A stretch of DNA of 64,000 nt from an uncultured delta proteobacterium. Its GTDB lineage: Bacteria; Desulfobacterota; DSM-4660; Desulfatiglandales; HGW-15. Both the position numbers and the translations under genes were made by a program. The stretch lies in contig CAVUFY010000004.1 of the NCBI GenBank assembly GCA_963740905.1, positions 387,735 through 451,734 on the forward strand. The letters run 5' to 3'. Shown here one piece after another: positions 3,966 to 60,808 of the stretch. Below the pieces are notes generated by a model. That model searched no databases. It was not told the DNA's origin and saw only the letters and a program-made list of their open reading frames with translations. Positions within the stretch are counted from its first letter, which is position 1; each line of letters begins with the position of its first letter.

Positions 3966-5729
3966 CTAGAACAGTCCCCTTACCTTGCCCGTCTTCACGT
4001 CCACGTCCACACGGCGGAAGGCCGGGTCGGAAGCGGTTCCGGGCATGAGGCTGATCGTTCCGGCGCAGGGGCAGAGGAACTTGGCGCCCGAGTAAATGAG
4101 CACGTCCCGGATGGGGAGGGTCCATCCCTTGGGAACGCCTTTCAGCGCGGGATCATGGGATAGACTCAAGTGGGTCTTCACCATCATGGTGGCGAACTCA
4201 TCGAACTTGGGATCCCCTTCGAGCATCTTCGCCTTGGCTTCGGCCTCGGGTGTCCAGGAAACCCCGTTCGCCCCGTACACCGTCTTCGCGATCTTCTCCA
4301 CCCTTTCGCGGAGTTTCATTTCCATGGGGTAAAGAAACTTGAACTTGGGCTTGGCCTCGCAGGCTTCCTTCACGGCCTCGGCAAGTTCGATGGCTCCATC
4401 GCCGCCTTTGGCCCAGTGCTCGGACACCGCGCATCGTGCGCCGGCCTCTTCGGCGTATTTCCTCACCATGGCAATTTCGGCCTTCGTATCCGTGTGGAAG
4501 CAGTTGATGCATACCACCGGATTCATGCCCGATTTGCGGATGGTGTTGATGTGGTGCACCATATTGGGAATTCCTGCTTCGAGGAGCTTGAAATTCTCTT
4601 TTGTGTACGCGGGATCGAGAGCGATACCGGCCACCACCTTGGGACCTCCGCCGTGCATCTTGAGGGCGCGGATGGTCGTGGTCAGCACCGACACATGGGG
4701 GGTGAGGCCGCTGTAACGGCACTTCACGTTCCAGAACTTCTCGAACCCGATGTCCGCCCCGAAACCGCTCTCCGTCACATGGTAGTCGAAAAGCTTGAGG
4801 CCCACGCGGTCGGCTATGATGGAAGACTGGCCGACGGCGATGTTCGCAAAAGGCCCGGCATGGACAAAGCATGGCTGATACTCGGCCGTGCTCATAAGAG
4901 TGGGGTTGATGGAGTCGACCATCCAGGCGGCCATTGCGCCGTCCACCTCGAGATCTCCGGTGGTCACGGGCTTGCCTGCCTTGTTGAAAGCCACGGTGAT
5001 CTCCCCAAGGCGTTTCCTGAGGTCCGCGAGGTCCGTGATGATCGCCAGGATGGCCATGATCTCGGATGAGACCGCGATCCCGAACTTGGATTGCATGGTG
5101 AAGCCGTCCTGCCGGCCCCCTAATCCGATGACGATGTTCCTCAAGCTCTGGGCGCAGAAGTCGATAATCCACCCCATTTCCACGCGGGTGGGATCCACGT
5201 CCAGCCTCTTCATCCTGGTCAGTCGCTTGAGTTGCTCGTCATTGTAGTTTCTTTCGTGCTGCATCCTTGCGGTGAGAGCGACCATGGCAAGGTTGTGGGC
5301 GTTCATGATGTTGTTGATGTCGCCTGTCAGCCCCATGGAGAATTCGGTCATGGGGATGATCAACGCGTTCCCGCCGCCCGCGGCTGTTCCCTTGATATTC
5401 ATGGTTGGGCCGCCGGAAGGCTGGCGAAGGGCGCCGCCCACACTCATCCCGAGCTTGCCCAGGCCTTCCATCAACCCGCACGAGGTAGTGCTTTTTCCTT
5501 CCCCGAGAGGCGTGGGGGTAATGGCGGTCACCTCGATGTACTTCCCGTCCTTCTTCTTCTCCAGACGTTTCATGACCTTCAGAAAGTCAATCCTCGCCAA
5601 CCTTCCGTGAGGGATCATTTCGTCTTTTTCGAGTCCCATTTTCTCGCGCCACTCGTCCGCAGACGGCATTTTCTTCTCGGCAGCTTCAGATATCTGCCAG
5701 TCCTTCATCTTTACCGCATCATAGGGCAT
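3966..5729 (-). CDS. fhs: Formate--tetrahydrofolate ligase
   Basis: Signature [12 protein letters not shown] and full-length similarity to Fhs. Start chosen at MPYD (ATG 5729), 9 nt after AGGAGG. The track ORF extends upstream to 5897 without support. Confidence 0.95.
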
Positions 5730-6040
5730 ACTCTTCATCCTCCTCTTCTTTCTGTGTTTTTTGTTGACCGCATAGCAAGTGTCATTCCGAACCCAAAAGG
5801 CAAACTTTCTTCGCTGACAGCCCGTCTCTTCGTTGCCGGACACTGGAAGCACCTTCGGACAGAGGCAGGCATTGCCCGCAGGACGGGATTTACCCAAGAA
5901 AACAACTCGTTAGATCTGATTACGGTGCTGACGGCCCGATCTTTCTGGAGAAGGGCACTTTTTCGTACCAAAAAAAAGATGGGGCGTCAAGCGTTTCCGA
6001 AACCCAAATGCGTCGGATTTCAGATATTTCCCTCAAACCC

Positions 6041-37316: not shown

Positions 37317-39384
37317 ATGAAGGCAACGGCTACCCGTACCATTTGCCAATTCTGCCACACCAATTGCGGTCTGGTGATTCATCGGGATGACGACGGCGCT
37401 CTCTCTGTGCGAGGAGATCCCGATCACCCCACAAACAGAGGCCGTATTTGTGTGAAAGGGGCGGCTGTCCCGGAGTTTATTCGTTCGGAGGATAGGCTGA
37501 AATACCCGATGCAGAAGACGTCGACAGGCTTCAAGAGAATCTCTTGGGACAACGCTCTCAAGTTCGCAGCGGATAAACTGGGAGAGATTCGAAGCAAGTT
37601 CGGGCCCCTGAGCCTCGTGCGATGCGCGGGCGCCCCGGTTTCCTATCAGGCCAGGGACGGCTTTCTTCAGTTCATGGGTGAATTCGGCTCGCCCAACATG
37701 ACCGGGGCCGCGAACCTTTGCATGGTACCCAGGATGACGGCGTTCCGCGCTGTAACGGGCAGTATCAGAGCTGAACCGGATTATGATCACACGGAGCTGG
37801 TCCTTTTTTGGGGTGTAAACCCCCTTGTCTCCGAGCGTTTCGGAGCCTATGCCTCCTACAACGGCATGACACAAATCCTTCCCCGTCTGAAAAAACGAGG
37901 GGCGAGAATCATCTCCATCGACCCCTTTCGAACGGCAACGGTGCAGCAAACGGATGAATGGGTACGGCTCAAACCGGGCAGTGATGTGGCGCTTGGCCTT
38001 GCCATGATCCATGTGATCATCGCAGAACAACTTTATGACAAGGCGTTCGTGGAGAGTTATGCCGGCGGATTCGAGGAACTAAAGGAACACGTCAGAGCAT
38101 GCAGCCCTAAATGGGCCGAAGACCGCACCGGAATCCCGGACAAGACAATAGAGGAATTAGCCAGGGTCTATGCGACTACAAAACCGGCTGTCATTTACGA
38201 GGGCAACGGCCTGGATATGTACACGAACGGCGTAGATGCCGTGCGGACCATCGCAATCTTGATCGCCCTCACGGGTAATCTGGACATACCCGGCGGGAAC
38301 GCATTCATGCCCTTTGCGCCCCAGTCCTCCCTCCCCACAAAGGCTGTGCCCAGAGAGAAGAGAGTGTGGCACGAAAGATTCTCGGTGTTCGGCGAGGTTC
38401 CGTTCCCGGCTGTGAAAGAGGCACTTTTGGGAAACGAAAACACCCGCCCACGAGCCATGATCGTTCATCACTGCAACCCGGTTCTTGTTCAAGCCAACGA
38501 GATCCGCACCAGGCAGGCCCTGGAGAAGTTGGATTTCCTCATGGTGAATGAGGTTTTTCCCACAGCCACCTCTGAAATGGCCGACCTGGTCTTGCCCATC
38601 GCGTCCGACTTTGAAACCTTTGGGTACAGGGCCTACTCCAGTGTGGAGGGAGGCTTCCTGGCCCTTGCCCGGCCGATCACGGCGCCCGTGGGCGAAGCAA
38701 GATGCGTATTCGAAGTGGAGCACGAACTGGCGGAAAGGATGGGGTTTAGCGATGGTTATCCTTTTCACGACGCGGTGAGTTGGATCCGATTCATGATCAA
38801 GCCGAGCGGCGTCACGTTTGAACGTCTTGATCGAGGAACAGATCGTGTATGCGACGCCACCCCTTCAATACCGGAAGTATGTGGGCGGGGGGTTCAAGAC
38901 CCCTTCCGGAAAAGTCGAATTCTATTCCCGGAGGTTTGAGGCGGCCGGCTACAGCCCGATCCCGGCATACACCGAGCCTGCGGGTGAACCTTTGGTACAG
39001 CGGGTTATGTCGGAGAAAGGGTTCCCTCTGCTTGGGACCAGCCGGCGTCCGTCTTCATTCGTCCACACCAAGTTGAAGAACCTTGAAGCCCTGTCCAAAG
39101 CCTACCCGGAACCTCTCATCTGGGTTCACCCGCTGGATGCCTCTAACAGGAAGATCACTGACGGCGATCCGGTAGAAGTCGTATCGCCCCAGGGGAAGAT
39201 CGTGCTGAGAGCGAAGCTCACTGAGGACACGAAGCCGGGGTTCGTCTGGATAGACTTCGGATGGGGGAATCCTACCGACGGAAAAGCTAACATTAACGTT
39301 CTGACGAACGACGCGTACTTCGACCCCATATCAGGGGGGACCCCGAACAGACTGTTCCCCTGCGAGGTTCAAAAGGTGACGTAG
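37317..39384 (+). pseudogene. Cytoplasmic molybdopterin (bis-MGD) oxidoreductase, split by a +1 frameshift near 38826-38832
   Basis: N-terminal CQFCHTNCG...CVKG 4Fe-4S motif with no Tat signal. Frame 0 reads ...IKPSGVTFERL and then nonsense. Frame +1 continues IEEQIVYATPPLQYRKYVGGGFKTPSGKVEFYS...GDPVEVVSPQGKIVLRAKLTEDTKPGFVWI (MopB C-terminal barrel). Confidence 0.7.
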
Positions 39385-42355: not shown

Positions 42356-43652
42356 CTACTTCATCAAGCTCGGTATGAAGAGCGCTATCTGCGGAAAAAT
42401 CGTAATGATGATCAAACAGACGATCATCGCGAAAACGAAAGGAACGACTCCCCTGAAAATCCTGGATATCGCGACATCACTCACTCCTCCGAGAATGAAC
42501 ACGTTCATGCCGAAGGGCGGGGTGATCATTCCCATTTCCTGGGTGATGACGATGACGACCCCGAACCATATGGGGTCAAAACCCATTGCTACGACTGAAG
42601 GGAAAATGATCGGCAACGTGAGAATTTGCGCCGCCATGACATCCAGGAACATCCCGAGTATAATGTAGACGACCACAATCGCAGAGAAAATGACATACTT
42701 TGACAAGGCGACCCCTGGGATAACATTGGCCAGCGCGAACGGGAGTTTGCTTATGGCCATAAAATTCATGAAGATCATTGCACCGATGATCAGGAGAAGG
42801 ATCATGGCCGTAATCTGCCCGGTATCGACCAGCGCCTTCACGAATAACTTCCAGGAAAGACGCCCGGCTATGGACGTGATAACGATAGCTCCAAAGGCTC
42901 CGATGGCCCCTGCTTCATTCGGAGTAAATATCCCGGTATAGATGCCTCCCATAACCAGCACGAAGAGACAGAGCATTGCCCAGGTTCGTCTGAGCGATGA
43001 GATTTTCTCCCTGAAAGTGGTCTTTGGACCTCGCGGACCAAACTGTGGCTTGTACTTCGTGATGACAGCAATGGTGACAATGAACAGGCCGGCCAAGAGA
43101 TTCTCCGGGATGATGCTGGCCATACAGAGTATTGGAACGGACTCTTCCGTAAGAATGGCATACAGAATGAATCCGAGGCTCGGCGGGATGAGAATCTGAA
43201 GTCGCTCCGGATGCCACACATCCTGAAGCCAATTCCAGGTTGTAGTTGTATTTTTTCATTTCTGGAAGCGCCACACGTCCCATGGTTCCCGAGGTAGCCA
43301 TGCTTGAACCGCAGATAGCGGCGAAGCCGGTGCATGCTGCGATGGTCGCTATGGCCAGTCCTCCTCTCAGGTGTCCCATCCACTTGTATCCCGTGTCATA
43401 AAGATCCGCGCTTATTCCTCCGATGGAAGTCACCGTGCCCATAAGGAGGAAAAGGGGTATCACGGTCAGATTGTAGCTGGACACGGTGCTGTAAGGAACG
43501 GTAGCCAAGACCCCGAGTGCCGCCTTGAGCCCTCCGATGTATGCAAAGCCCAGAAAGCCGACCAGCGCAAGGGCGAAGCCGATCCACATCCTGAGAGAAA
43601 GCAGGATAAGAAGGAGCAACAAACCGAGAAGACCTGCAAGACTTGGATTCAT
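42356..43652 (-). pseudogene. dctM: TRAP transporter large permease, split by a +1 frameshift near 43195-43205
   Basis: The upstream frame reads ...PEMKKYNYNLELASGCVASGAT, then nonsense. The downstream frame reads LQILIPPSLGFILYAILTEES... The intact paralogue at 54259..55563 reads MKKYRYLDTLSTGTVAAAGSLGILIPPSTVFILYGILVEES across the same point. Confidence 0.75.
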
Positions 43653-44164
43653 CCTTTTACGGCCTGATATATCGTTTGAATCAAAGTGATCAGAAGGACC
43701 GTCCACAAGATCAGAGAACCGATAGCCAGTATCAGGTAAAACGGATAGGCCGGCACGCCCAGCATGTCCGACACTCGGTTGGCTTCCACCATCTCATTGA
43801 ACTCAAGAAAGGCCTGCCACGTCATGAGAGAAAGGATTCCCAGACTGAGAAAGCAGGTGATGCTGTCCACGACAGCCAACAGCTTAGGCGGGAAGCGGAC
43901 GGTCAAAATCTCTACCCTCGCGTTGCCCCCTCTGACGGCACAGAGCGGCAATGCGAGGTACACGACGGCAACCATCAAGTATTCGCAGAGTTCTACGGTA
44001 CCCAATATGGGCTTATTGAAGGCGTAACGGAGGAAAACATCCGCTACGGTGACAAGCATCATGAAAGTCAGGACGGCCATGCCCACGCCGTTGGCGATGC
44101 GACTCACGGTCCTGATGGTTGTCTCAACTGAACGGAACGGGCTCCTTCGCTCCATATTTGTCAT
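43649..44164 (-). CDS. dctQ: TRAP transporter small permease
   Basis: About 170 aa with 4 TM segments, and ...VTVADVFLRYAFNKPILGT..., typical of DctQ. The start is uncertain (44164 or 44155). Confidence 0.75.
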   Translation of the reverse strand: MTNMERRSPFRSVETTIRTVSRIANGVGMAVLTFMMLVTVADVFLRYAFNKPILGTVELCEYLMVAVVYLALPLCAVRGGNARVEILTVRFPPKLLAVVDSITCFLSLGILSLMTWQAFLEFNEMVEANRVSDMLGVPAYPFYLILAIGSLILWTVLLITLIQTIYQAVKG

Positions 44165-46817: not shown

Positions 46818-48582
46818 ATGGCTTTTGATGAATTCAAAGGGGCAATGTTCAGCCCGAAATGGAAGTGTTCGGAGAGAAAACATAGGTACATCGTCGAACG
46901 GGATGTCAGGATTGCTGTGAGCGACGGGACCAAACTCAATTGTGACCTCTGGCGGCCTGACAGCCAAGGCAAGTTTCCAGCGGTCCTGAGCTTCCACAAC
47001 TATCATTCCCATGGACAGACCGGACCTATCAAGCCTGCGGCTATATCCACGGCTCAGTGGCGCCATCCCGGTCAGGAAAGAACCAACGCTTCCCTGGAAA
47101 GCGGGGATCCCGTTTTCTTTGCTCGCCGGGGTTATGCGCACGTGGTCTGTAATGCTCGCGGAACCGGGAAGTCCGAGGGGAAATGGCACTTTACAGGGCC
47201 GCAAGAAGTCAAAGACGCCTATGACGTCATTGAGTGGATCGCAGCACAACCGTGGTGCGATGGCAACGTCGGCATGTTCGGGGTCTCTTACTTTGCCTGG
47301 ATCCAGTTGTTTGTAGCTCAGCTCAATCCGCCCCATCTGAAGACCATTTTCTGTCCCTGGGGGTCTACCGATTTCTATCGGGACATCTGCTATCGCGGCG
47401 GAATATTCGCATGCAAGTGGCCCATTGGCTGGAGCCAAACTTCCCTCATCTATGGAAACATCAGGCCGGAAAACTACTCCAAAAACGACCTCGGCGCGGA
47501 AGGGTACAGAAAAGCTATTGCCACATTGCTGGAGGACGAAGACATTCGCTCAGTCCCCGAGCTACCGAACATCCTGAAAAACCCGGAGGAAGGAGTCAAT
47601 CCATTCATTGTGGACTTAGCCCTTCATCCAGACCTATGACAAGTACTGGGAGGATCGCACCGTCGACTACAGCAAGATAAAGATTCCAGCTTACATCGGC
47701 GGCGACTGGGAGTGTTTCGGCATACATCTGCCCGCCGCGTTTCGGAGTTGGGAATACCTCAACGTCCCCAAGAAGATGATCATAGGTCCTCCGGTCTACC
47801 TTGACCGTCCCCTCTATCAGCTTCAACATGAAGCGGTCCGATGGTTCGACTACTGGATCAAAGGGATTGACACAGGGATCATGGAAGAGCCGCCGGTGCG
47901 TGTCTTCGTCATGGGTACCGGTGAGTGGAAGGCCGGAAACGATTGGCCTTTTCCGGAGACAAAGTTCACCCCCTTCTTCCTCCATGAGTACGGTCTCCTG
48001 AGCGAGCACGAGCACTGGAGCTACGAGGGAAGCGATTCCTTCGAGGAATCTCCCTGGATGCGCGGAAGCCTCAAGTACATGACACCGCCGCTGGTAGAAA
48101 ACACGGAGATCGTGGGGCCCATCATGCTGAAGCTATACGCGGCCACCACCGATGTGGATGTGCACTGGATCATTTCGCTTATCGAGGTCGACGGTGAAGG
48201 AAACGAACGTCTCCTCACCAAGGGCTGGCTGAAGGGCTCTCACAGAGAACTCGATTCACAAAAGTCCAAACCCTGGGAGCCCATCTATACACATAAAAAG
48301 TCCGAGCCCCTCACACCGGGCAGAATCTACGAATTCGATATCAAACTGGTGGCTACGGGCAACCTGTTCAAGGCCGGTTCCAGGGTGGCGGTAAAGATCA
48401 GTTGCGTCGACGACGAGCCGAAGAATCCCCTTGAGCTTATCGGCACTGGAAGTCTTCGTAGGACAGCTGTTGCGAGGGTGACGGTTTTTCACAACGAGGA
48501 TTACCCTTCATATCTCCTCTTACCCATCACCCGAGGCAACCTATTGAATACCTATTTCTCGGGAGGCAAGTTTCCAGGCTAA
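46818..48582 (+). pseudogene. CocE/NonD (X-Pro dipeptidyl-peptidase S15) family hydrolase, split by a +1 frameshift between 47620 and 47639
   Basis: N-terminal alpha/beta-hydrolase part (ARGTGKSEGKW..., nucleophile GVSYFA) ends ...ALHPDL-TGA. The +1 frame continues YDKYWEDRTVDYSKIKIPAYIGGDWECFG...PPVRVFVMGTGEWK... through to the C-terminal jelly-roll domain. Confidence 0.75.
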
Positions 48583-48686
48583 TCCAGGCCGCAGGCAGCG
48601 AGCAAGAGATCTCCTCGGCCGCCATCGTTTTCTTATCAGTGTCCTTCGTGTCTGTGGCGAAAATCTTATTTTGGACAAGACTGACA

Positions 48687-49412
48687 TCAACTGATTTTCC
48701 GTGTCCGAGAGTTTGCTGCGGCCTGTAAATAGGCAAGAATCAGCGGGTGGGGATTCCCCGGCTTTGAAGCAACCTGGGGCAAAAAAAGTGTCGCCACGAA
48801 GAAAGGATGATCAGTGAGTTCCACGATCCGCACTTCTCCCTCAGGATCAACGCCCGTGATGTTAAGGTTTACGTTGTCGATCTTGTCTCGGAATACCGGA
48901 TTGAGGCCATAGTTGCAGAAGAACTGCTCCGTGGCTTTTTGCTCCCCGTAAGCGCGATGGGCAATCGAGCCTGACGCTAACTCTATCTCCTGAGTTTTGC
49001 CGACCAGAGAGCAGGCCAGCCTGCTGATAAAAAGGGTCGATGCCCCGGGCGCGGATTCTTCGTGCTCGGCATCCTTGATTCCCAACACGTTGCGTGCATA
49101 CTCTAACAGAGCATGTTGAAATCCTCCTCAGGTTCCGATAAACGGCAGTTTCCTCTCACGAGCGAAACGGATCGCCCGGAGCGCTCCGTCCATCCTCCTG
49201 TAAGGGCTTCCGGGGGAGCACCATAGGGCATCAAACTGCTCTAGGTTTTTCTGCCCGGTCTTACCCTCCAGCGACTGCGTCGGCAGCCATTGAAAATCAA
49301 GAGCGAATGACAAGGCCTTTGCGGCATGCTCCAAGCCTTCGTTGGTGGCCTTGTGGAACCGGAGACCCGGATTGTAATCCCCGATGATTCCCACCCTGAT
49401 TATCGGTTTCAT
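48687..49412 (-). CDS. CTP-synthase C-terminal (class-I glutamine amidotransferase)-related protein with in-frame UGA; candidate selenoprotein (241 aa if read through)
   Basis: Track ORFs 49128..49451 and 48687..49088 share one frame and are separated by one TGA (49128-49130) plus 13 sense codons. The joined sequence ...RFARERKLPFIGT-U-GGFQHALLEYARNVLG aligns with PyrG ...[28 protein letters not shown], placing the UGA on the nucleophile Cys. GGAGG lies 8 nt before ATG 49412. Confidence 0.6.
49097..49130 (-). promoter_or_regulatory. UGA codon plus SECIS-like hairpin
   Basis: UGA-GGAGGAUUUCAA-[CAUGCUCU]-GUU-[AGAGUAUG]: an 8-bp stem with one G-U pair. The apical loop starts 21 nt after the UGA with G as its first loop base. 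Confidence 0.45.
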
Positions 49413-49726
49413 GTTTTGTACCTCCTGGATTTGACGCTTAGTGCCTACCATACACGGTCGGCGTCTGAATTAAAACAGCAATCTCCTTGATTTTCATTCG
49501 CGAGTGAACTGATCTTGATCGGAACGACCCGCACTTCCCCGTTAAGGGGACCACTTTTTGCCGACCTCGATGGCGAAGCATGTCTTTTCGGCTCGGCTTG
49601 CGAGGATAAACATCTTGCAGCCGATAAACAAAAGGAATACAAGTATAAATCTGTGCGGTGAGAAGCGATAAAAGGATCCGCCTTTTCGATGTCACCGCTG
49701 GGGATTGTTTGCGAAGGGAATAGCTT

Positions 49727-52600
49727 ATGAAGAGAGGGTGGTTAATCGGCTTGGTGTTCGCCGGCCTGATCCTGTTCTGGTGGGCGTTTTCCATTTATCC
49801 CGACTGGCTCTGGTTCGGGAAACTTAACTATTCGTCGGTTTTTTGGACGGTGCTCGTGAGCAAATTTGGCTTTGGTCTTGCAAACTGGCTCCTTTTCATC
49901 CTTATCCTTGCCGTGAACCTTTACGTTGCCTCTCGTTTCAAGCCTCGATTTCCAGTCAAATCAGCTCTTGGAAGAGAAGCTGACTCCTACGGTCCACTGG
50001 GGATCTCCGCAAAATCGGGCGGTTTTCTTCTTGGAGCAATTGTGCTCGTGATCAGTCTCGTTCTTGCCTCAACGGGCTCCTCTGAATGGGATGTGATTCT
50101 CCGCTTCCTTCATCAACAACCCTTTGGCGGCAAGGACCCTATTTTCGGCAGGAATATAGCATTTTACGTGTTTTCTTTGCCTTTCTATCTCTTCCTCCAG
50201 GGCGACCTTCTTGCCCTGTTCATCCTTTCAGCCATCATCACGGTCGGGTGGTGCCTGAAGAACGGCGCCATTCGAGTGAGTAATCTGGAGGGATTCGGAC
50301 AGGCTGAAGGTAAACAGGCCGCCCCGCCCAAAATCGATGTTGACCCCCGGGTGATCAGGCACCTCATTTTTCTGGGAGGTATTGTCGTGCTGCTCCTGGC
50401 CTGGGGTTATCGCCTCAAGATGTTCAACCTCCTTTATTCGACCGCAGGGGCCGCCCCCGGGGCCGGCTACACCGACGTCCATGTCAATCTCATTTCATAC
50501 GGTGTAATGATTTTTGTTTCTCTCGCTTTTGCCTTGCTCCTCTTCCTCAGTGCCTTTAGGACCAGGACGAAACTGGTCTGGCTGAGCGGTGGAGTCTGGC
50601 TGGGAATGATATTGCTGCTTACTACCATTGTCCCCGTAGTGGTGCAAAAGACGGTGGTCAAGCCGAATGAATTGGCAAAGGAGTCTCCTTACATTAATTA
50701 CAATATCCACCACACCCGGGAGGCCTATAATCTGAACATGATTAACGAGGTCAGTTTCCCGGCGGGTGAGAAGCTGACCGCACAGAACATCAAATCGAAC
50801 CAGGCAACCATCAATAATATCAGGATTTGGGATGAGCGCCCCTTGCTGCAAACCTACAATCAGCTCCAATCAATACGGCTCTATTTTGAGTTCAACGACG
50901 TGGACGTTGATCGTTATCAGGTAAACGGTAGTTACAGGCAGGTGATGTTGTCCGGGCGGGAACTCAACGTGAACGCGCTTCCGCCTCAGGCCGACACATG
51001 GGTCAACAGGCATCTGATTTACACCCATGGTTACGGCTTGATCATGAATCCGGTCAACAAGGTGACGAGTGAAGGGCTTCCAGACCTCCTGATCAAGGAT
51101 CTGCCCCCTGTTATTGATTTTGACATGAAGATAGAGCATCCGGAGATCTATTACGGAGAAAAGACAGATGGGTATGTTCTTGTCAAGACCAAAACCGAGG
51201 AATTTGATTACCCCAAGGGCGACCAGAATGTTTACACCCATTATGAAGGAGCGGGAGGGGTCTCCATAAACTCATTCACCAGAAGGATCTTGTTTTCCCT
51301 GGAATTCGTGGACCCCCAAATACTATTCACCAACTCCCTGGGTCCCCAGAGCAGGATCATGTACAATCGAAGGATCGATAGGCGGGTACGGGCAATTGCC
51401 CCATTCTTGGATTATGACGGCGACCCCTACCTCGTTGTCTCAGGGGGAAGGCTCAAGTGGATTCAGGACGCTTACACCACTTCCGACATGTATCCCTATT
51501 CCACCCGGTCCTATGACTACTTCAACAAGGCCTTGAACTACGTCCGCAATTCGGTCAAGGTCGTTATCGATGCCTACAATGGCGATGTATCGTTCTACAT
51601 GATTGATCAAAAGGACCCCATCATAAAGACTTATTCGAGTATATTTCCGGGTCTGTTTAAACCCTTTAGTGAAATGCCCGATGATCTGAAAAAGCACATT
51701 CGCTATCCCAAGGATCTGTTCAAGATCCAGGCAAACATGTACAGCACCTATCACATGAAAGATGCGCAGGTCTTTTACAACCAGGAAGACCTCTGGCAGA
51801 CCCCTAATGAAATCTATGCGAGTAAGAGACAAAAAATGGAGCCCTACTACATCATAGCGCGGCTCCCTCAGGAAAAAAACGAAGAGTTCGTCCTGATGCT
51901 TCCCTTCACCCCTTCCAACAAAGACAATATGATCGCATGGCTCGCGGCAAGATGTGACATGCCCGATTACGGGAATCTGATTGTGTACAAATTGCCCAAA
52001 GACAAGCTCATCTTCGGTCCGATGCAGGTTGAAGCAAGGGTCGACCAGCAAACGAGTATTTCAAGAGAACTGACCTTATGGGGGCAGAGAGGTTCAAGCG
52101 TGATCAGAGGCAACCTTCTCGTTATTCCCATTGATGACAACTTTATCTACGTGGAGCCTGTATATCTGCAAGCTAACCAGCTTGGAGCGGAATCTTCTCC
52201 ACCTGGTCCTAATCAAGCGAGAGGGCCGAGAACGTCGAGGTCAACGGGTGCGGATGATTCAGCCGGAATGAGAGAGCAGGCTGTCACGGCGCTGCCGGAA
52301 CTCAAGAGGGTCATCGTTTCTTTCGGAGATCATCTGGTCATGAGCGAAAATCTTGAGAGTGCCATCTACGGTGTTTTAGGCGAAGCAGTCCCTACCCAAG
52401 AATCCGTCTCAACAGTCATCGCCCCCACGCTGCCGGGTGCTGTCAGCTCTGCGGTGTCAGAAGCCCTGGAACACTTTGAAAAGGCCAAGGCCTATTCGCG
52501 TCAGGGCAACTGGGCTGAATATGGGAAGGAACTGGAAACTCTGGAAAAGATACTGAACCAGATGGCCGCCGAAACGTCAAAGGCCCAGAAAAAACCATAA
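49727..52600 (+). CDS. UPF0182-family large membrane protein (957 aa)
   Basis: Multiple N-terminal TM helices and a large extracytoplasmic part. Remembered UPF0182 blocks are present (HLIYTHGYG, YYIIARLPQE, LLVIPIDDNFIYVEPVYLQA). Confidence 0.7.
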   Translation: MKRGWLIGLVFAGLILFWWAFSIYPDWLWFGKLNYSSVFWTVLVSKFGFGLANWLLFILILAVNLYVASRFKPRFPVKSALGREADSYGPLGISAKSGGFLLGAIVLVISLVLASTGSSEWDVILRFLHQQPFGGKDPIFGRNIAFYVFSLPFYLFLQGDLLALFILSAIITVGWCLKNGAIRVSNLEGFGQAEGKQAAPPKIDVDPRVIRHLIFLGGIVVLLLAWGYRLKMFNLLYSTAGAAPGAGYTDVHVNLISYGVMIFVSLAFALLLFLSAFRTRTKLVWLSGGVWLGMILLLTTIVPVVVQKTVVKPNELAKESPYINYNIHHTREAYNLNMINEVSFPAGEKLTAQNIKSNQATINNIRIWDERPLLQTYNQLQSIRLYFEFNDVDVDRYQVNGSYRQVMLSGRELNVNALPPQADTWVNRHLIYTHGYGLIMNPVNKVTSEGLPDLLIKDLPPVIDFDMKIEHPEIYYGEKTDGYVLVKTKTEEFDYPKGDQNVYTHYEGAGGVSINSFTRRILFSLEFVDPQILFTNSLGPQSRIMYNRRIDRRVRAIAPFLDYDGDPYLVVSGGRLKWIQDAYTTSDMYPYSTRSYDYFNKALNYVRNSVKVVIDAYNGDVSFYMIDQKDPIIKTYSSIFPGLFKPFSEMPDDLKKHIRYPKDLFKIQANMYSTYHMKDAQVFYNQEDLWQTPNEIYASKRQKMEPYYIIARLPQEKNEEFVLMLPFTPSNKDNMIAWLAARCDMPDYGNLIVYKLPKDKLIFGPMQVEARVDQQTSISRELTLWGQRGSSVIRGNLLVIPIDDNFIYVEPVYLQANQLGAESSPPGPNQARGPRTSRSTGADDSAGMREQAVTALPELKRVIVSFGDHLVMSENLESAIYGVLGEAVPTQESVSTVIAPTLPGAVSSAVSEALEHFEKAKAYSRQGNWAEYGKELETLEKILNQMAAETSKAQKKP

Positions 52601-52621: not shown

Positions 52622-53719
52622 ATGGAAAAGGCGAAAAAGTTTATCCTGCTGGGAAGTATTTTTTTGGCCTTCGGATTCATGGTATACTCAATTGTCCTTG
52701 GCCAGGCGCTGGCGGCGTCGCAGATACGGCTTAAGTTCAGCAACTTCTTTCCACCCGCATCCGATCTGAGCAAAATCTGCGAAGCGTTCATCTCGGACAT
52801 CGAAAAACGTACGGACGGCAGGGTAAAGATCGCCTATTATCCGGGTGGCTCACTGCTCAAAGCTCCTGCCATGTTCATGGGCGTGGTGGAGGGAGCGTCC
52901 GACATAGGCTTTGCCTCCATTATGTATACTCCGGGCAGGATGCCCGTTACCGAAGTCCTCGGGCTGCCTTTAGGCTACCCCAATCCGTGGGTAGGTGGTC
53001 ATGTGGCCAACGACTTTTATAAGCAATTCAAGCCCAAAGAGTGGGACCCGGTTCATGTTCTCTGGATGCATTCCTCCGGCATCACCGTCCTGATGACCAA
53101 GCAGCCGGTGCACAAAATGCAAGACCTTAAGGGGCTGATCATAAGGGCTCCCGGCCGCATCGGTGAGGCAATCAAGGCGTTAGGCGGGACTCCTGCGCCT
53201 ACGGAGATGGGGGAAGTGTACGATGCGTTGTCCAAGGGCGTTATTCACGGCGTCTACACCGGCGTTATGGGACTTAAGGACTGGCGCTTCGCCGAGGTTG
53301 CCAAGCACACGACCCTATGCTGGGAGGTGAGCAGCATCTATCCATTCTACGTGGTGATGAACAAGAAGAGCTGGGACAAATTGCCCCAGGACATCAAAGA
53401 GATTTTCAATAAGGCCGCTGACGAGTATGAAGAGAAATTCGCGATGGTTTGGAACGGAGCGGAGGTCCGGGGCAAAGAATTCGGCGCGAAGTCTGGGGTG
53501 GAGTTCATCAAATTGTCCCGTGAAGAAGCAGCCTCGTGGCGGCAGGCGGTTAAGCCCGTGATAGCGGGATATGAAAAGGAAATGGTTGGCAAAGGGTTCG
53601 CAAACAAAGATGTGGCAAATTGGGTCGATTTTATAGAAGGAAAAATCGATTACTGGACGAAAAAACAGGCACAACTTGGGATCAAGTCTGCAACCGGTCC
53701 TGAAGAGGTCCTAAAGTGA
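52622..53719 (+). CDS. dctP: TRAP transporter substrate-binding protein
   Basis: Signal/anchor sequence, then IRLKFSNFFPPAS... in a DctP-family pattern. It starts 21 nt after the UPF0182 stop and is preceded by GAGGAGG. Confidence 0.85.
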   Translation: MEKAKKFILLGSIFLAFGFMVYSIVLGQALAASQIRLKFSNFFPPASDLSKICEAFISDIEKRTDGRVKIAYYPGGSLLKAPAMFMGVVEGASDIGFASIMYTPGRMPVTEVLGLPLGYPNPWVGGHVANDFYKQFKPKEWDPVHVLWMHSSGITVLMTKQPVHKMQDLKGLIIRAPGRIGEAIKALGGTPAPTEMGEVYDALSKGVIHGVYTGVMGLKDWRFAEVAKHTTLCWEVSSIYPFYVVMNKKSWDKLPQDIKEIFNKAADEYEEKFAMVWNGAEVRGKEFGAKSGVEFIKLSREEAASWRQAVKPVIAGYEKEMVGKGFANKDVANWVDFIEGKIDYWTKKQAQLGIKSATGPEEVLK

Positions 53720-56682: not shown

Positions 56683-57999
56683 ATGTCGTATACCTTAAAA
56701 ATTTGGAACGACTTCAAGAATTACCAGAGCACTTGTTACAGGAACTACGCGTATGTTTCGGAAGGTCTTCGCTGCATGGGCTCTACTTGGAGCGTGCTGG
56801 CCCCCCTTAAGGGGTTAGGGGAAGATGTATACCTGCTGGGCGGCGAGCCCCACGCCGCGTCAACCGCCGGAACATTCCCTGAAGAGGCCCGCGAGGATAT
56901 TTCGGCGGCTGAAATCGCAGGCTTGGGGTTTCACGCTTGCAGTTACCTGAAGCTGTTCGTAGGGGAAGTGGTCCGCGACAAGATGGGGATCACAGATGGA
57001 ACAATCAAGGAGGGATATCCCAAACCGAATTTGATCTGGACTACGCATTTGTGCAATCTGCATTCAAAGTGGTACCAGGAAGTTTCGAGGCGCCTAGGCG
57101 GCATACCCATGTACCCTATAGATATGATCGGCGGGGGGAATGCGGAGAAAGATCCTAAGATCGTAAAATACGTGTGCGACCAGATGGAGGAGGGAATACG
57201 CTGGCTCGAGAGAGTCACCGGCAGGGATTTTTCGGATGAGTTGTTCATCAAGGCAGCCAGAAATGAGATCAAGGTGCTGGTGCTATGGGGCAATATATGT
57301 GCACTGAACATGCATGCCCCCGCGCCGTTGGATGAGCGTCGGCTCATAGCTCTATTTCCGCCGGCCATGGTGGACAGGACGACGGATGAAGCGGTGCGGA
57401 TATATGAGGCATTGCTGAAAGAAGTGCGATACATGGTCGAAACCGGACAGAGTGTGGTTCCGGATCAACGCTACAGAATCGTCTATTTTGGACTGGCACA
57501 TACTTATGGCCACCCGGAAATCGCGAGAATCCTCAGGGACGCAGGAGCCGAGATTGTGGCCTCAGTCTATACTTTTGGCACGGCCGGCAATTTCAAGGGA
57601 TTTGTGAACGGAAAATGGTCATGGGAACCCATCAACCCTGCATGGGTCGACGAACTGGATTTCTCCACCAGAAGAGATGCCTTGTCTGCGCTGGCCAAAA
57701 TAGCGTTGGGCTGGCCGACCTGGCAAGGGGTAAGGTCCTATTGGGCACTGGAACAAATGGCCAGGGCGATGGTGACAGAATATGGGGCAGACGGCCTTTT
57801 GTTGGCCCCTACCCGTACGTGTGAAACGGACTTCAGGAACGGCTACATAGCGATGCAGCGCATCTTTAAGAACCAAATTCCGACCGTTGAATACGATACC
57901 GAAACCGTAGATGTCCGAAAAATGGATTTGCCCGGTTCCAAACGAAAAACAGAGTTATTCGTGCATCTCATGGAAGCGCACAAGAAAGGAAGGGCATGA
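56683..57999 (+). CDS. 2-hydroxyacyl-CoA dehydratase / benzoyl-CoA reductase B-type subunit (BcrB/BzdO-like)
   Basis: 438 aa with an HGD-D-family pattern (conserved Cys context ...THLCNLHSKWY..., ...APTRTCE...). First gene of a tightly packed four-gene set. Confidence 0.7.
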   Translation: MSYTLKIWNDFKNYQSTCYRNYAYVSEGLRCMGSTWSVLAPLKGLGEDVYLLGGEPHAASTAGTFPEEAREDISAAEIAGLGFHACSYLKLFVGEVVRDKMGITDGTIKEGYPKPNLIWTTHLCNLHSKWYQEVSRRLGGIPMYPIDMIGGGNAEKDPKIVKYVCDQMEEGIRWLERVTGRDFSDELFIKAARNEIKVLVLWGNICALNMHAPAPLDERRLIALFPPAMVDRTTDEAVRIYEALLKEVRYMVETGQSVVPDQRYRIVYFGLAHTYGHPEIARILRDAGAEIVASVYTFGTAGNFKGFVNGKWSWEPINPAWVDELDFSTRRDALSALAKIALGWPTWQGVRSYWALEQMARAMVTEYGADGLLLAPTRTCETDFRNGYIAMQRIFKNQIPTVEYDTETVDVRKMDLPGSKRKTELFVHLMEAHKKGRA

Positions 58000-58005
58000 G
58001 AAGAG

Positions 58006-59169
58006 ATGAACAGAAGTTCTGAATCAATAATCGAACATTTTCGCCACGTCACTGAGAATACGCATGAATACGCTAAATCCCTCCAGGAGAAAGGACGTCT
58101 CTTGGCTGGATATATGTGCACCCATGTGCCGGAGGAAATTCTATACGCAGCCGGAATCATACCGCTGAGAATTCTCAGCGCCCATGTTTCGCAAGCCATG
58201 ACAAGGAGCTACATTCACGAAACCTACTGTTCCTTTTCGCATGATTGCGCATACCAAGGACTGCAGCACAACTATGATTACCTGGACTTGATCGTGCATA
58301 GCAGCAGTTGCATACACATGGCTGAAGCGTTTAACGTTTGGGTCAGGTTTGCAGGCTTCCAGGAAAAAAGCTTCCTGATCCCCTACCCTCATATCATCCA
58401 TGCCAAACCTGCGGCCGGGTTTATGGCAGAGTCTTTTGCAGAGTTTAAACAATTCATTGAAAAGTTTGCGAAGACGTCCATAACGGATGATGACATCGAA
58501 CGGGCGATTAAGGTGTACAATCACACCAGAAGACTCCTCAAGCGACTCTGGGGGTTCCTGAAGCTGGACAGCTCCCCTATAACGGGGTCGGAAGTCGCGA
58601 CGGTCACTTTGGCTTCCCAAGTCATGGAAAAGCAAGAGTGCAATCAAATGCTGGAGCAACTGGTTCAGCAAATAGAAAACGCGCCCGGCAAAGCGTCCCC
58701 AGGGGTAAGGCTGATGGTGACGGGAGGCGCGTGTGACGACTTGCGGATTTTCGATTTAATTGAACATCTGAACCACAATACAAGCCTGATCTTCATTGAT
58801 TCTTGTACGGCGGCCAGGTACTTCTGGTTTGAAGTGCCTGAGGATCGCCCTGATAAGCTGGGAGCGATCGCTGAGGGACTCATCAATAGAATTCCGTGTC
58901 CTGCAAAGGACAATGTTCCCGGCACCGGGGAGAAAAAACGGTTCAGGTTCATACAACAGTTCATCGAGGACTTCAAGCCGGATGGAATAATATTTCTCTA
59001 CCAGCGATTTTGCAGCCCCCAATCCATGGACGTTGTGGCACTGAAGCCCATCGTGAACATGTTGGGAATCCCGTGGACCGAGCTCGAACTTGATACGACG
59101 GTGCCAATCGTTCAGTTCGGAACACAGCTGGAAGCCCTCGTAGAAATCATAAAGCAGGTGGCGCCATGA
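58006..59169 (+). CDS. 2-hydroxyacyl-CoA dehydratase / benzoyl-CoA reductase C-type subunit (BcrC/BzdN-like)
   Basis: 387 aa with LLAGYMCTHVPEEILYAAGIIPLRI... and ...FLYQRFCSPQ..., typical of HGD-D family subunits. Confidence 0.7.
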   Translation: MNRSSESIIEHFRHVTENTHEYAKSLQEKGRLLAGYMCTHVPEEILYAAGIIPLRILSAHVSQAMTRSYIHETYCSFSHDCAYQGLQHNYDYLDLIVHSSSCIHMAEAFNVWVRFAGFQEKSFLIPYPHIIHAKPAAGFMAESFAEFKQFIEKFAKTSITDDDIERAIKVYNHTRRLLKRLWGFLKLDSSPITGSEVATVTLASQVMEKQECNQMLEQLVQQIENAPGKASPGVRLMVTGGACDDLRIFDLIEHLNHNTSLIFIDSCTAARYFWFEVPEDRPDKLGAIAEGLINRIPCPAKDNVPGTGEKKRFRFIQQFIEDFKPDGIIFLYQRFCSPQSMDVVALKPIVNMLGIPWTELELDTTVPIVQFGTQLEALVEIIKQVAP

Positions 59170-59954
59170 ATAAGGGAAAAGTAATTGCCGGACTGGATGC
59201 AGGTCATATAAATACCAAGGCCATAATCATGGAGGGGCGGGAAATCCTTGGGTACCGCACGGTCCCCACAGGGTTTGATGTCGCCGCTGCGGCCCAAACA
59301 GCACTCAATGAAGCTTCGGAGAGTGCGGGAATCTCCCGCAGTGAACTGGGCGGAATCACGGCTACTGGAATCTTTAAAGATACGACCAACGGACCGTCCC
59401 TGAACATAAGCAAGACCGTCCCCGAATACGTGGCGGATGCTAAAGGCGCTTTGTTCCTCAATAAGAATTCCAGAACAGTCATCGACATCGGCGGCAATAT
59501 ACATAAAGTTGTCCAGTATGACGAAAGCGCGAATCTTCTGGATGTTGTTCAGAATGATAAGTGTGCCGACGGTTTGGGCATTTTTTACACCAACATGGCC
59601 AAGGCCATAGGATTAAACGAGCGGGAAATGTCCGATTTGGCACTTCAATCCACCAAGACTCTATCAGTCGCCATTCAGTGCGCACTATCCGCTGAATCAG
59701 ATGCGATTGATTTGATCTGCCAAGGCAGTGACATCGCGGATGTGGCGGATGCTGTCTTGAGATTCATAGTTGAACGGGTTGCGGATATGTGCACCTATAT
59801 GCCTCTTACCAGAGAGATCGTGGTAGCGGGAGGATTAGCCAAATCCGAAGCGCTTGTTAAGCACCTTGCGAGTCTGATAAAACAAGACCTGAGCACAGTG
59901 GACCTTCCGGAATACGTATGTGCCATAGGTGCGGCCATTTGTGATGGGGGTTGA
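59166..59954 (+). CDS. BadF/BadG/BcrA/BcrD-type ATPase subunit (BcrD/BzdP-like)
   Basis: Acetate/sugar-kinase-fold ATPase with GLDAGHINTKAII, cluster-ligand contexts NDKCADGLG and CALSAESD, and VVAGGLAKS. ATGA overlaps the upstream stop. Confidence 0.75.
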   Translation: MNKGKVIAGLDAGHINTKAIIMEGREILGYRTVPTGFDVAAAAQTALNEASESAGISRSELGGITATGIFKDTTNGPSLNISKTVPEYVADAKGALFLNKNSRTVIDIGGNIHKVVQYDESANLLDVVQNDKCADGLGIFYTNMAKAIGLNEREMSDLALQSTKTLSVAIQCALSAESDAIDLICQGSDIADVADAVLRFIVERVADMCTYMPLTREIVVAGGLAKSEALVKHLASLIKQDLSTVDLPEYVCAIGAAICDGG

Positions 59955-59956
59955 AA

Positions 59957-60808
59957 ATGAGCGGGTGGGTTTCAATGAAAGAACAGCTGGATTGGAAAAA
60001 GGCTGAGGTTATAGCAGCCGGTGTGGATGTTGGAGCCGTGAGTTCCAAAGCCGTGTTGCTGTTGGATGGGCAGCCATATGCCTTTTCTCAAGTCAGAACT
60101 CGAACGCCCAAAGAGTCTGCTTTAGGCGCCATGAACACGGCATTAGCGAAAGCTCATTTGAAGCTGGATAATATCCATTGCCTGGTGGCGACCGGCCGCG
60201 GCAGGTCCCAGGTTCCGTTCGCTCGCGAAACCGTGTCTGAAATCGCGTGCGCCGCCGCAGGGGCGGTACACATTTGGGGTCCATCGGTGCGAACAGTGCT
60301 GGATGCTGGAGGTCAAAGTTGCAGGGTCATTCACTGCACCGGCAAAGGCAGAGCAACCGCTTTCCTTTGGAATGACAAATGTGCCGCGGGCATTGGACGC
60401 TCGATAGAAGCATTTTCCGGGCTGATTAAGAAAGATGTAAATGAGATTGGAATCATAGCTCTTCAGACTGATCAGTTCCCGAGGCTGAGTGACTTTTGCG
60501 CCGTGTATGCTCAATCCGAGGCTCTGGACTTGATTCGAAGCAAGATCCCCCTGGAACAAGCAATAGCCGCTTACCACTATGCCATGGCTAAGAGAATCAG
60601 CACATTGGCGGCCAGATCAGGAGTGAAAAGGGATTTTGTAATTATTGGAGGGCTGAGCAAGAACCCAGGAATAAGATCTCGCGTTGAAAGCATCCTGAAG
60701 GTAAACCCGTTGGTTCCTGAACCTGAATGGGATCCTGCCTTGACCACGGCTTTAGGTGCTGCCCTATTTGCAGATAGTCTCTATAGGAGGCAAGCGCCTG
60801 ACAAGTAA
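59957..60808 (+). CDS. BadF/BadG/BcrA/BcrD-type ATPase subunit (BcrA/BzdQ-like)
   Basis: GVDVGAVSSKAVLL, WNDKCAAGIGRSIE, FCAVYAQSEA and IIGGLSKNPG. It could instead start at TTG 59951, overlapping the upstream stop. Confidence 0.78.
   Translation: MSGWVSMKEQLDWKKAEVIAAGVDVGAVSSKAVLLLDGQPYAFSQVRTRTPKESALGAMNTALAKAHLKLDNIHCLVATGRGRSQVPFARETVSEIACAAAGAVHIWGPSVRTVLDAGGQSCRVIHCTGKGRATAFLWNDKCAAGIGRSIEAFSGLIKKDVNEIGIIALQTDQFPRLSDFCAVYAQSEALDLIRSKIPLEQAIAAYHYAMAKRISTLAARSGVKRDFVIIGGLSKNPGIRSRVESILKVNPLVPEPEWDPALTTALGAALFADSLYRRQAPDK

Follow-up and report, generated by a model that had tools for sequence, protein, structure and literature searches.

The stretch of DNA analysed here (the window; 64,000 nucleotides (nt) of contig CAVUFY010000004.1 from an uncultured delta proteobacterium) carries on its minus strand, at 48687..49412, what is very probably one intact, selenocysteine (Sec)-encoding gene of family NF004836. 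The complete gene has 241 sense codons, including an in-frame UGA at codon 95 (49128..49130), and a stop codon at 48689..48687. The two open reading frames (ORFs) into which gene callers split it at 49128 should thus be annotated as a single selenoprotein gene. That such a protein exists is already known, as the family is represented in NF004836, in the deep-Sep study of 2025 and in a 2026 review, and its members have been described in print as predicted selenoproteins. What keeps the family of interest is its function, and the fact that all members have lost the catalytic His while a new set of His and Cys residues has become invariant.

Re-reading of the sequence agreed with the initial annotation that two minus-strand ORFs, 49128..49451 and 48687..49088, lie in the same frame and are separated by the TGA (49130..49128) and 13 sense codons. 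The 241-residue read-through product that it had described was obtained with a start at ATG 49412. This is likely the true start, rather than the in-frame upstream ATG at 49451 that bounds the first ORF, because a Shine-Dalgarno-like AGGAGG (49421..49426, minus strand, read directly from the sequence) lies 8 nt 5' of it and because the NF004836 profile starts at residue 5 (MKPII...). The UGA sits in the nucleophile elbow, G-T-U-G-G, and is aligned with the catalytic Cys of CTP synthase. Another Shine-Dalgarno-like purine run occurs at the recoding site itself, where GGA GGA (Gly-Gly) directly after the UGA gives the mRNA sequence UGAGGAGGA (49119-49130, minus strand). It is probably a mere consequence of coding, since the third bases of GGN GGN vary among the other TGA forms.

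The read-through protein matched the NF004836 profile with 348.6 bits (curated cutoff, 260), residues 5-232 covering profile positions 1-227 of 228. PF00117 (GATase) was the sole Pfam domain match, at 39.3 bits versus a gathering score of 22.8. A glutamine-hydrolysing CTP synthase (PyrG) was considered and rejected: the PyrG models (TIGR00337 / NF003792) gave 139.1 bits versus a cutoff of 462.75, aligned over only their C-terminal 237 profile positions (290-526), and the protein has neither the synthase domain nor the Cys-His-Glu triad. It is a stand-alone CTP synthase glutaminase (class I amidotransferase) domain of 241 residues without the amidoligase domain, and the upstream neighbour of its gene is divergent and unrelated. 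The closest sequence found is 79% identical to the window protein. There is no essential difference between the window gene and the rest of NF004836, as both share the same length, the same position of Sec in GxUxG and the same mix of Sec and Cys forms.

The suspicion of the initial annotation that the family might already be catalogued was correct, as the profile match and two publications show. The deep-Sep study first reported the family as a predicted selenoprotein, in Desulfosediminicola ganghwensis, together with TGA and Cys homologues (PMC12013277), and the 2026 review of prokaryotic selenoproteins, which cites that study for the family, lists it with the motif GxUxG (PMC13188914). In the passages of these two papers that were consulted, the family is called a glutamine amidotransferase with no further function assigned, and the family-wide absence of the triad His is not mentioned (PMC13188914, PMC12013277). 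A literature search by family name and identifiers returned the 2026 review only.

To follow the UGA column across the family, we used 160 related loci, found by scanning contigs of one genome per species and contigs from metagenomes, and a set of 271 unique family sequences for residue conservation counts. The codon in this column was TGC at 107 loci, TGT at 14 and TGA at 39, and nothing else was seen. At the protein level, the column holds Cys in 233 sequences, Sec in 37 (31 with an in-frame TGA and 6 mis-called as Trp) and Leu in one. Cys or TGA is thus found in 270 of the 271 sequences. TGA forms come from Desulfobacterales-like bacteria, Chloroflexota and Rokubacteria, and Cys forms from Pseudomonas, Xanthomonadales, Burkholderiales, Acidobacteriota, Actinomycetota and others. 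A neighbour-joining tree analysed by Fitch parsimony requires at least nine switches between Cys and Sec, with Cys at the root.

The sequence after the UGA is under purifying selection: against TGA-bearing relatives, the ratio of nonsynonymous to synonymous substitution rates (dN/dS) of this part is 0.12-0.28, close to the value before the UGA, and every family invariant downstream of the UGA is kept in the window protein. Nor is the TGA an assembly error, because an independent Logan assembly of run ERR11571143 (locus L168), 99.6% identical over window positions 47589..49743, carries the same TGA; the initial annotation had raised such an error as a concern. Together with the Cys/TGA column, the downstream selection upholds its central proposal, a candidate selenoprotein with Sec at the nucleophile of a protein resembling the C-terminal part of CTP synthase. 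The comparative evidence for Sec is strong, and UGA-95 would be decoded by SelB and tRNA-Sec, aided by a hairpin 12 nt downstream.

Public records of the family treat this codon in various ways. In the L168 assembly, gene calling yields two proteins here, with 94 and 133 residues. Six homologues (P0001, P0002, P0005, P0006, P0023 and P0096) have Trp at the Sec codon in public gene calls, and the underlying TGA was verified for P0001 (locus L081). Database copies with 'W' at the Sec position are mistranslations. One close relative, P0029 (L169, 838-1569), has TTA (Leu) at the Sec/Cys codon with its hairpin, of the same type as in the window, intact. TTA is one substitution from TGA; the codon may have changed recently from TGA, the allele may be inactive, or the base may be a sequencing error.

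The hairpin resembles a selenocysteine insertion sequence (SECIS). At 49097..49115 on the minus strand, from 12 nt after the UGA, an 8-bp stem, CAUGCUCU/AGAGUAUG, closes a GUU loop (CAUGCUCU-GUU-AGAGUAUG, read 49115..49097), and the loop G lies 21 nt past the A of the UGA. Published bacterial SECIS models place a stem-loop directly 3' of the UGA, with an apical loop containing a G 16-37 nt away. The hairpin of the window and those of all TGA homologues fit this geometry, and coding alone allows similar stability (p = 0.18). All TGA forms carry a hairpin at the same distance, with the loop starting 23-24 nt past the U of the UGA, in one of three stem versions that stand in shifted registers relative to the codons. 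Type A, CAU(G/A)CUCU-G(G/U)U-AGAGUAUG, occurs in the window and its clade and in all type A TGA homologues, with GGU or GUU loops. Type B, from a Rokubacteria-type clade, reads CGCGAuC-GUCGA-GuUCGCG with GUCGA, GUAGA or AUCGA loops, and type C reads CGUACU-GGUCG-AGUACG with a GGUCG loop. GU or GGUC is present in these loops, as it is in that of the fdhF element of Escherichia coli. Like fdhF, the window has a hairpin within the coding sequence directly after the UGA, with a loop G and U ~23-25 nt from it, and the type C relatives carry a GGUC loop. In contrast to fdhF, the stem of the putative element in the window is shorter (8 bp with a 3-nt loop) and shows no evident bulged U, and its loop lies ~2 nt further from the UGA.

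Several observations on the hairpin, and one on gene content, weigh against Sec decoding. In its 71-nt context the hairpin is not exceptional on its own (z = -0.58), and 18% of synonymous recodings that keep the protein fixed fold at least as well (p = 0.18). The same calculation gave p values of 0.01-0.06 for type B and of 0.4-0.6 for type C, the latter again unfavourable. A stem of at least 8 bp with a G in the loop is also present in 12 of 73 Cys homologues. Rfam returned no SECIS family, either in a scan of the whole window at the gathering threshold or in a permissive scan of 49000..49200; its sole hit, a snoRNA on the other strand, was dismissed as a chance match. Finally, selA, selB, selD and tRNA-Sec are absent from the 64-kb window. 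The SECIS-like hairpin of the initial annotation therefore stands in its description (8-bp stem, GUU loop, 12-nt spacing and 21-nt geometry) but is weak as evidence once the coding constraint is controlled for (18%). As a group, TGA forms fold more strongly than Cys forms, in a comparison of phylogenetically non-independent sequences.

Cys loci of Pseudomonas (for example L027, L028, L039 and L046) provide a further point on the same side: they often have a perfect 9-bp hairpin, UUUCAGCAU-GCC-GUGCUGGAA, ~10-30 nt after the Cys codon. Hairpins arise in Cys forms because the coding of FQHA(L/V)(L/V)EYA (the codons for F-Q-H-A-V-L-E) is self-complementary. Such a palindromic stretch would offer a ready-made SECIS precursor and warns against taking a hairpin alone as evidence. 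The window hairpin is plausibly a SECIS derived from coding sequence that was palindromic to begin with; it is not independent proof.

To place the protein structurally, we built an AlphaFold2 (AF2) model of the Cys homologue P0003, which is 68% identical to the window protein and has the same residue numbering. The model reached a predicted local distance difference test score (pLDDT) of 96.3 and a predicted template modelling score (pTM) of 0.93. Its best matches in the PDB were the glutaminase domains of CTP synthases, with template modelling (TM) scores of ~0.9 at 23-31% identity; the PDB holds no solved structure for any stand-alone member. HMMER alignments with three CTP synthases of known structure place the UGA at the catalytic Cys (Cys379 in E. 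coli, Cys391 in T. thermophilus), confirming its assignment to the amidotransferase half of CTP synthase in the initial annotation. In the same alignments, Leu211 and Gln213 correspond to His515 and Glu517, which together with Cys379 form the catalytic triad of the E. coli enzyme (PMC9138612). Leu-Pro-Gln, encoded by codons 211-213 (48774..48782, minus strand), hence replaces the triad His-Pro-Glu in alignments with CTP synthases from the PDB.

The loss of His is shared by the whole family. Across the 271 sequences, position 211 is occupied by Gln (112), Val (102), Leu (50), Cys (4), Met (2) or Glu (1), and never by His. Position 213 is Gln in 148, Glu in 99 and Pro in 22, with Gln in all 37 Sec forms. 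The earlier claim that both triad residues had been lost, with FLPQ in this protein, therefore holds for His, whereas Glu is kept in 99 of the 271 sequences, though in no Sec form. This widespread family has lost the defining residue of its parent class, yet it keeps a reactive Cys or Sec.

Comparison with the CTP synthase glutaminase domains (PDB 1S1M, 1VCO, 3NVA and 2VKT) showed how much else is retained. Both share the fold, the nucleophile elbow with its signature (G93-T-U95-G-G97-F-Q99, that is G-x-C-x-G-x-Q, with Gln99 invariant), the oxyanion-loop Gly/Ala68, Glu119 (Glu403 in E. coli), the IEYARNVLG helix and an HP(F/W)F...(T/Q)xF strand ahead of the triad loop. In contrast to CTP synthase, the family has no synthase domain, His515 has become Gln, Val or Leu, Glu517 is often Gln or Pro, and the nucleophile can be Sec. 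They also differ in the GTP cleft, where Phe353, the L13 wing and Arg468/Arg470 of CTP synthase give way to Ser69, a shortened loop with Cys134, and Cys166.

The roles of the lid, the L13 wing loop and the GTP cleft in CTP synthase have been described (PMC9138612, PMC8325340), and it is the GTP-binding segments that are replaced by residues invariant in this family, namely His20, His100, His117, Cys134 and Cys166. Although mean column identity of the family is only ~45%, near-invariant residues include His20 (Tyr in CTP synthase), Ser69 (Phe353), His100 (Val384), His117 (Ser) and Arg195 (Glu). His117, encoded at 49062..49064 (minus strand), is present in 269 of the 271 sequences, two residues before Glu119. 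Cys134 (49011..49013, minus strand), in the shortened counterpart of the L13 wing loop, is found in 264 of 271, and Cys166 (48915..48917, minus strand), which replaces a His of the RHRHRYE segment of CTP synthase, in 270 of 271 and in all 37 Sec forms. From this pattern we infer that the family invariants would surround residue 95 in the stand-alone protein, as a new active site or an extension of the old one.

On a bolder interpretation, NF004836 would be a re-engineered amidotransferase, in which the His-Glu relay has been discarded and a new centre at Sec/Cys95 occupies the former GTP cleft, with a chemistry undescribed for this fold; we regard this as possible but doubtful. Such a centre may comprise Sec/Cys95 with His117, His20, His100, Cys134 and Cys166. 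If true, the family would provide the first selenoenzyme on the nucleophile elbow of a class I amidotransferase, and its chemistry could be either that of a hydrolase or transferase that depends on the selenol and forms a selenoester, or a selenylsulfide redox cycle. The substrate, once found, would add a new activity to a well-studied fold and explain the cost of selenium at position 95.

As to the chemistry at residue 95, a serious if tentative candidate is that Sec/Cys95 attacks a carbonyl substrate covalently, with the acid-base function relocated, and we favour this because the machinery for an acyl intermediate is invariant. Sec/Cys95 would serve as the covalent nucleophile on a carbonyl-type substrate (an amide, thioester or aldehyde) bound in the old glutamine pocket, and one of the new His or Glu residues would supply the acid-base role. 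In Sec forms, the low pKa of the selenol would remove the need for an activating base. The protein would not channel ammonia to a partner domain. A mechanistic parallel is offered by the DJ-1/PfpI superfamily (glyoxalase III and deglycases), whose members carry a reactive Cys on the elbow and can use Glu, not a classical His-Glu relay. The folds are related (flavodoxin-like) and the reactive Cys lies on the nucleophile elbow in both, but there is no detectable sequence relationship between DJ-1/PfpI and this family, and the comparison is one of mechanism only.

The initial annotation had instead pointed to a redox or thiol/selenol-based role, which in a fuller form would be a cycle of Sec95 through a selenenic acid or selenylsulfide, with Cys166 or Cys134 as the resolving residue. 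We consider this rather unlikely, even though a good deal is consistent with it. The catalytic His is missing from all 271 sequences, and the two highly conserved Cys residues, 166 (270/271) and 134 (264/271), map to loops bordering the entrance of the glutamine pocket in CTP synthase. Sec occurs in 37 of the 271 sequences with at least nine Cys/Sec switches, and repeated switching of this kind is the typical pattern of redox Cys residues. Natural Sec is also far commoner in redox enzymes than as a hydrolase-type nucleophile, which counts against covalent carbonyl catalysis. Redox or detoxification genes (OsmC, nitroreductase, aldo-keto reductase) are among the neighbours at some loci; the neighbours vary, however, between loci. 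The protein has no CxxC- or CxxU-type motif, and G-x-C-x-G-x-Q, the oxyanion-loop Gly/Ala68 and Glu119, elements for an acyl intermediate and a glutamine-like substrate, are all invariant. This retained set speaks just as much for continued covalent catalysis on a carbonyl substrate as the missing His does for a redox role.

It is improbable that residue 95 instead belongs to a metal or cofactor site with His20, His100, His117, Cys134 and Cys166, with Sec as one of the ligands, as is the case in formate dehydrogenase and [NiFeSe] hydrogenase. The family-specific residues, three His and three Cys/Sec that are invariant despite the low mean column identity, would suit such a site, but this fold has no known metal site and no metallochaperone or cofactor genes lie nearby.

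The selenoprotein gene stands alone in the window. A UPF0182-type gene (49727..52600) diverges from it, a CocE/NonD hydrolase gene converges on it, and genes of tripartite ATP-independent periplasmic (TRAP) transporters flank it on both sides. Clustering of ORFs from 80 genome loci revealed no neighbourhood conserved across phyla, the most recurrent clusters being shadow ORFs of high-GC genomes, and no synteny was found between the window neighbours and the closest relatives. Genes for OsmC, nitroreductase, aldo-keto reductase, aminotransferase and acyl-CoA dehydrogenase occur as neighbours at other loci. As the neighbours are not conserved, genomic context gives no firm functional lead.

A divergent LysR regulator lies directly upstream of many homologues (L001, 1764-2717; L082, 6009-6899; L083, 3703-4653; L086, 4943-5848; L087, 4946-5824) and at ~40 Pseudomonas loci (for example L023, 9030-9968). 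The regulators of the closest clade (L001 and L082-L087) are orthologous to one another, whereas those of Pseudomonas belong to a separate, YafC-like group. LysR was rejected as a defining neighbour: it is frequent only, and neither the window nor 19 other TGA loci have it. Its identification as a 'selenium metabolism-associated LysR' was likewise not used as evidence, the best NCBIfam hit reaching 120 bits, below the cutoff of 250. In Xanthomonadales (L048, L057, L062, L071 and L076), the Cys-form gene lies between glyA (serine hydroxymethyltransferase) and nrdR, neighbours that were identified from their N-terminal sequences only.

Three apparent frameshifts lie within 12 kb of the selenoprotein gene. 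The CocE/NonD-family hydrolase (46818-48582, plus strand) is split between ORFs 46818-47639 and 47776-48582, which differ in frame. The L168 assembly has one base fewer at ~47627 and an uninterrupted hydrolase ORF, so that the break in the window is due either to an erroneous 1-nt insertion or to a frameshift specific to the strain. The TRAP large permease (DctM; 42356-43706, minus strand) is apparently frameshifted between an N-terminal ORF (42915-43706) and a C-terminal one (42356-43219), with the junction near '...ASGAT | LQILIPPSLGF...'. A molybdopterin oxidoreductase resembling formate dehydrogenase or thiosulfate reductase (37317-39384, plus strand) continues in a second frame after ~38830, again an apparent frameshift.

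These breaks put assembly quality or gene decay at issue, and bear on the possibility that the TGA is a true stop, in a pseudogene, through an assembly error or between two separate proteins of 94 and 133 residues. Automatic gene callers do split the gene there in L168, and the window is devoid of Sec machinery. Nevertheless, we consider a true stop very improbable. The nearby frameshifts are indels, whereas a TGA in place of a Cys codon is a substitution, and the same TGA recurs at 39 of the 160 loci, in several phyla and in no column but that of the Cys. Two separate proteins would divide the fold right at its nucleophile, and neither the dN/dS after the TGA nor its presence in an independent assembly fits a true stop.

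The genetic code of the window is standard, because conserved neighbouring genes terminate at TGA (for example at 53717 and 57997; the DctP gene and a bzdO-like gene). This effectively refutes a genome-wide reassignment of UGA to Trp or Gly (genetic codes 4 or 25), to which the six database homologues with W at the column might have pointed: their W codons are TGA in otherwise standard-code contigs, and family members without TGA have Cys at the column, never Trp or Gly.

The wider window also encodes a formate-tetrahydrofolate ligase (3966-5897, minus strand) and has a four-gene cluster (56683-60808, plus strand) that resembles bzd-type benzoyl-CoA reductase or double-cubane reductases with their activase. 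Together with the molybdopterin oxidoreductase, many TRAP transporters and sigma-54 regulators, this gene content points to a host, probably one of the Desulfobacterota, with an anaerobic way of life.

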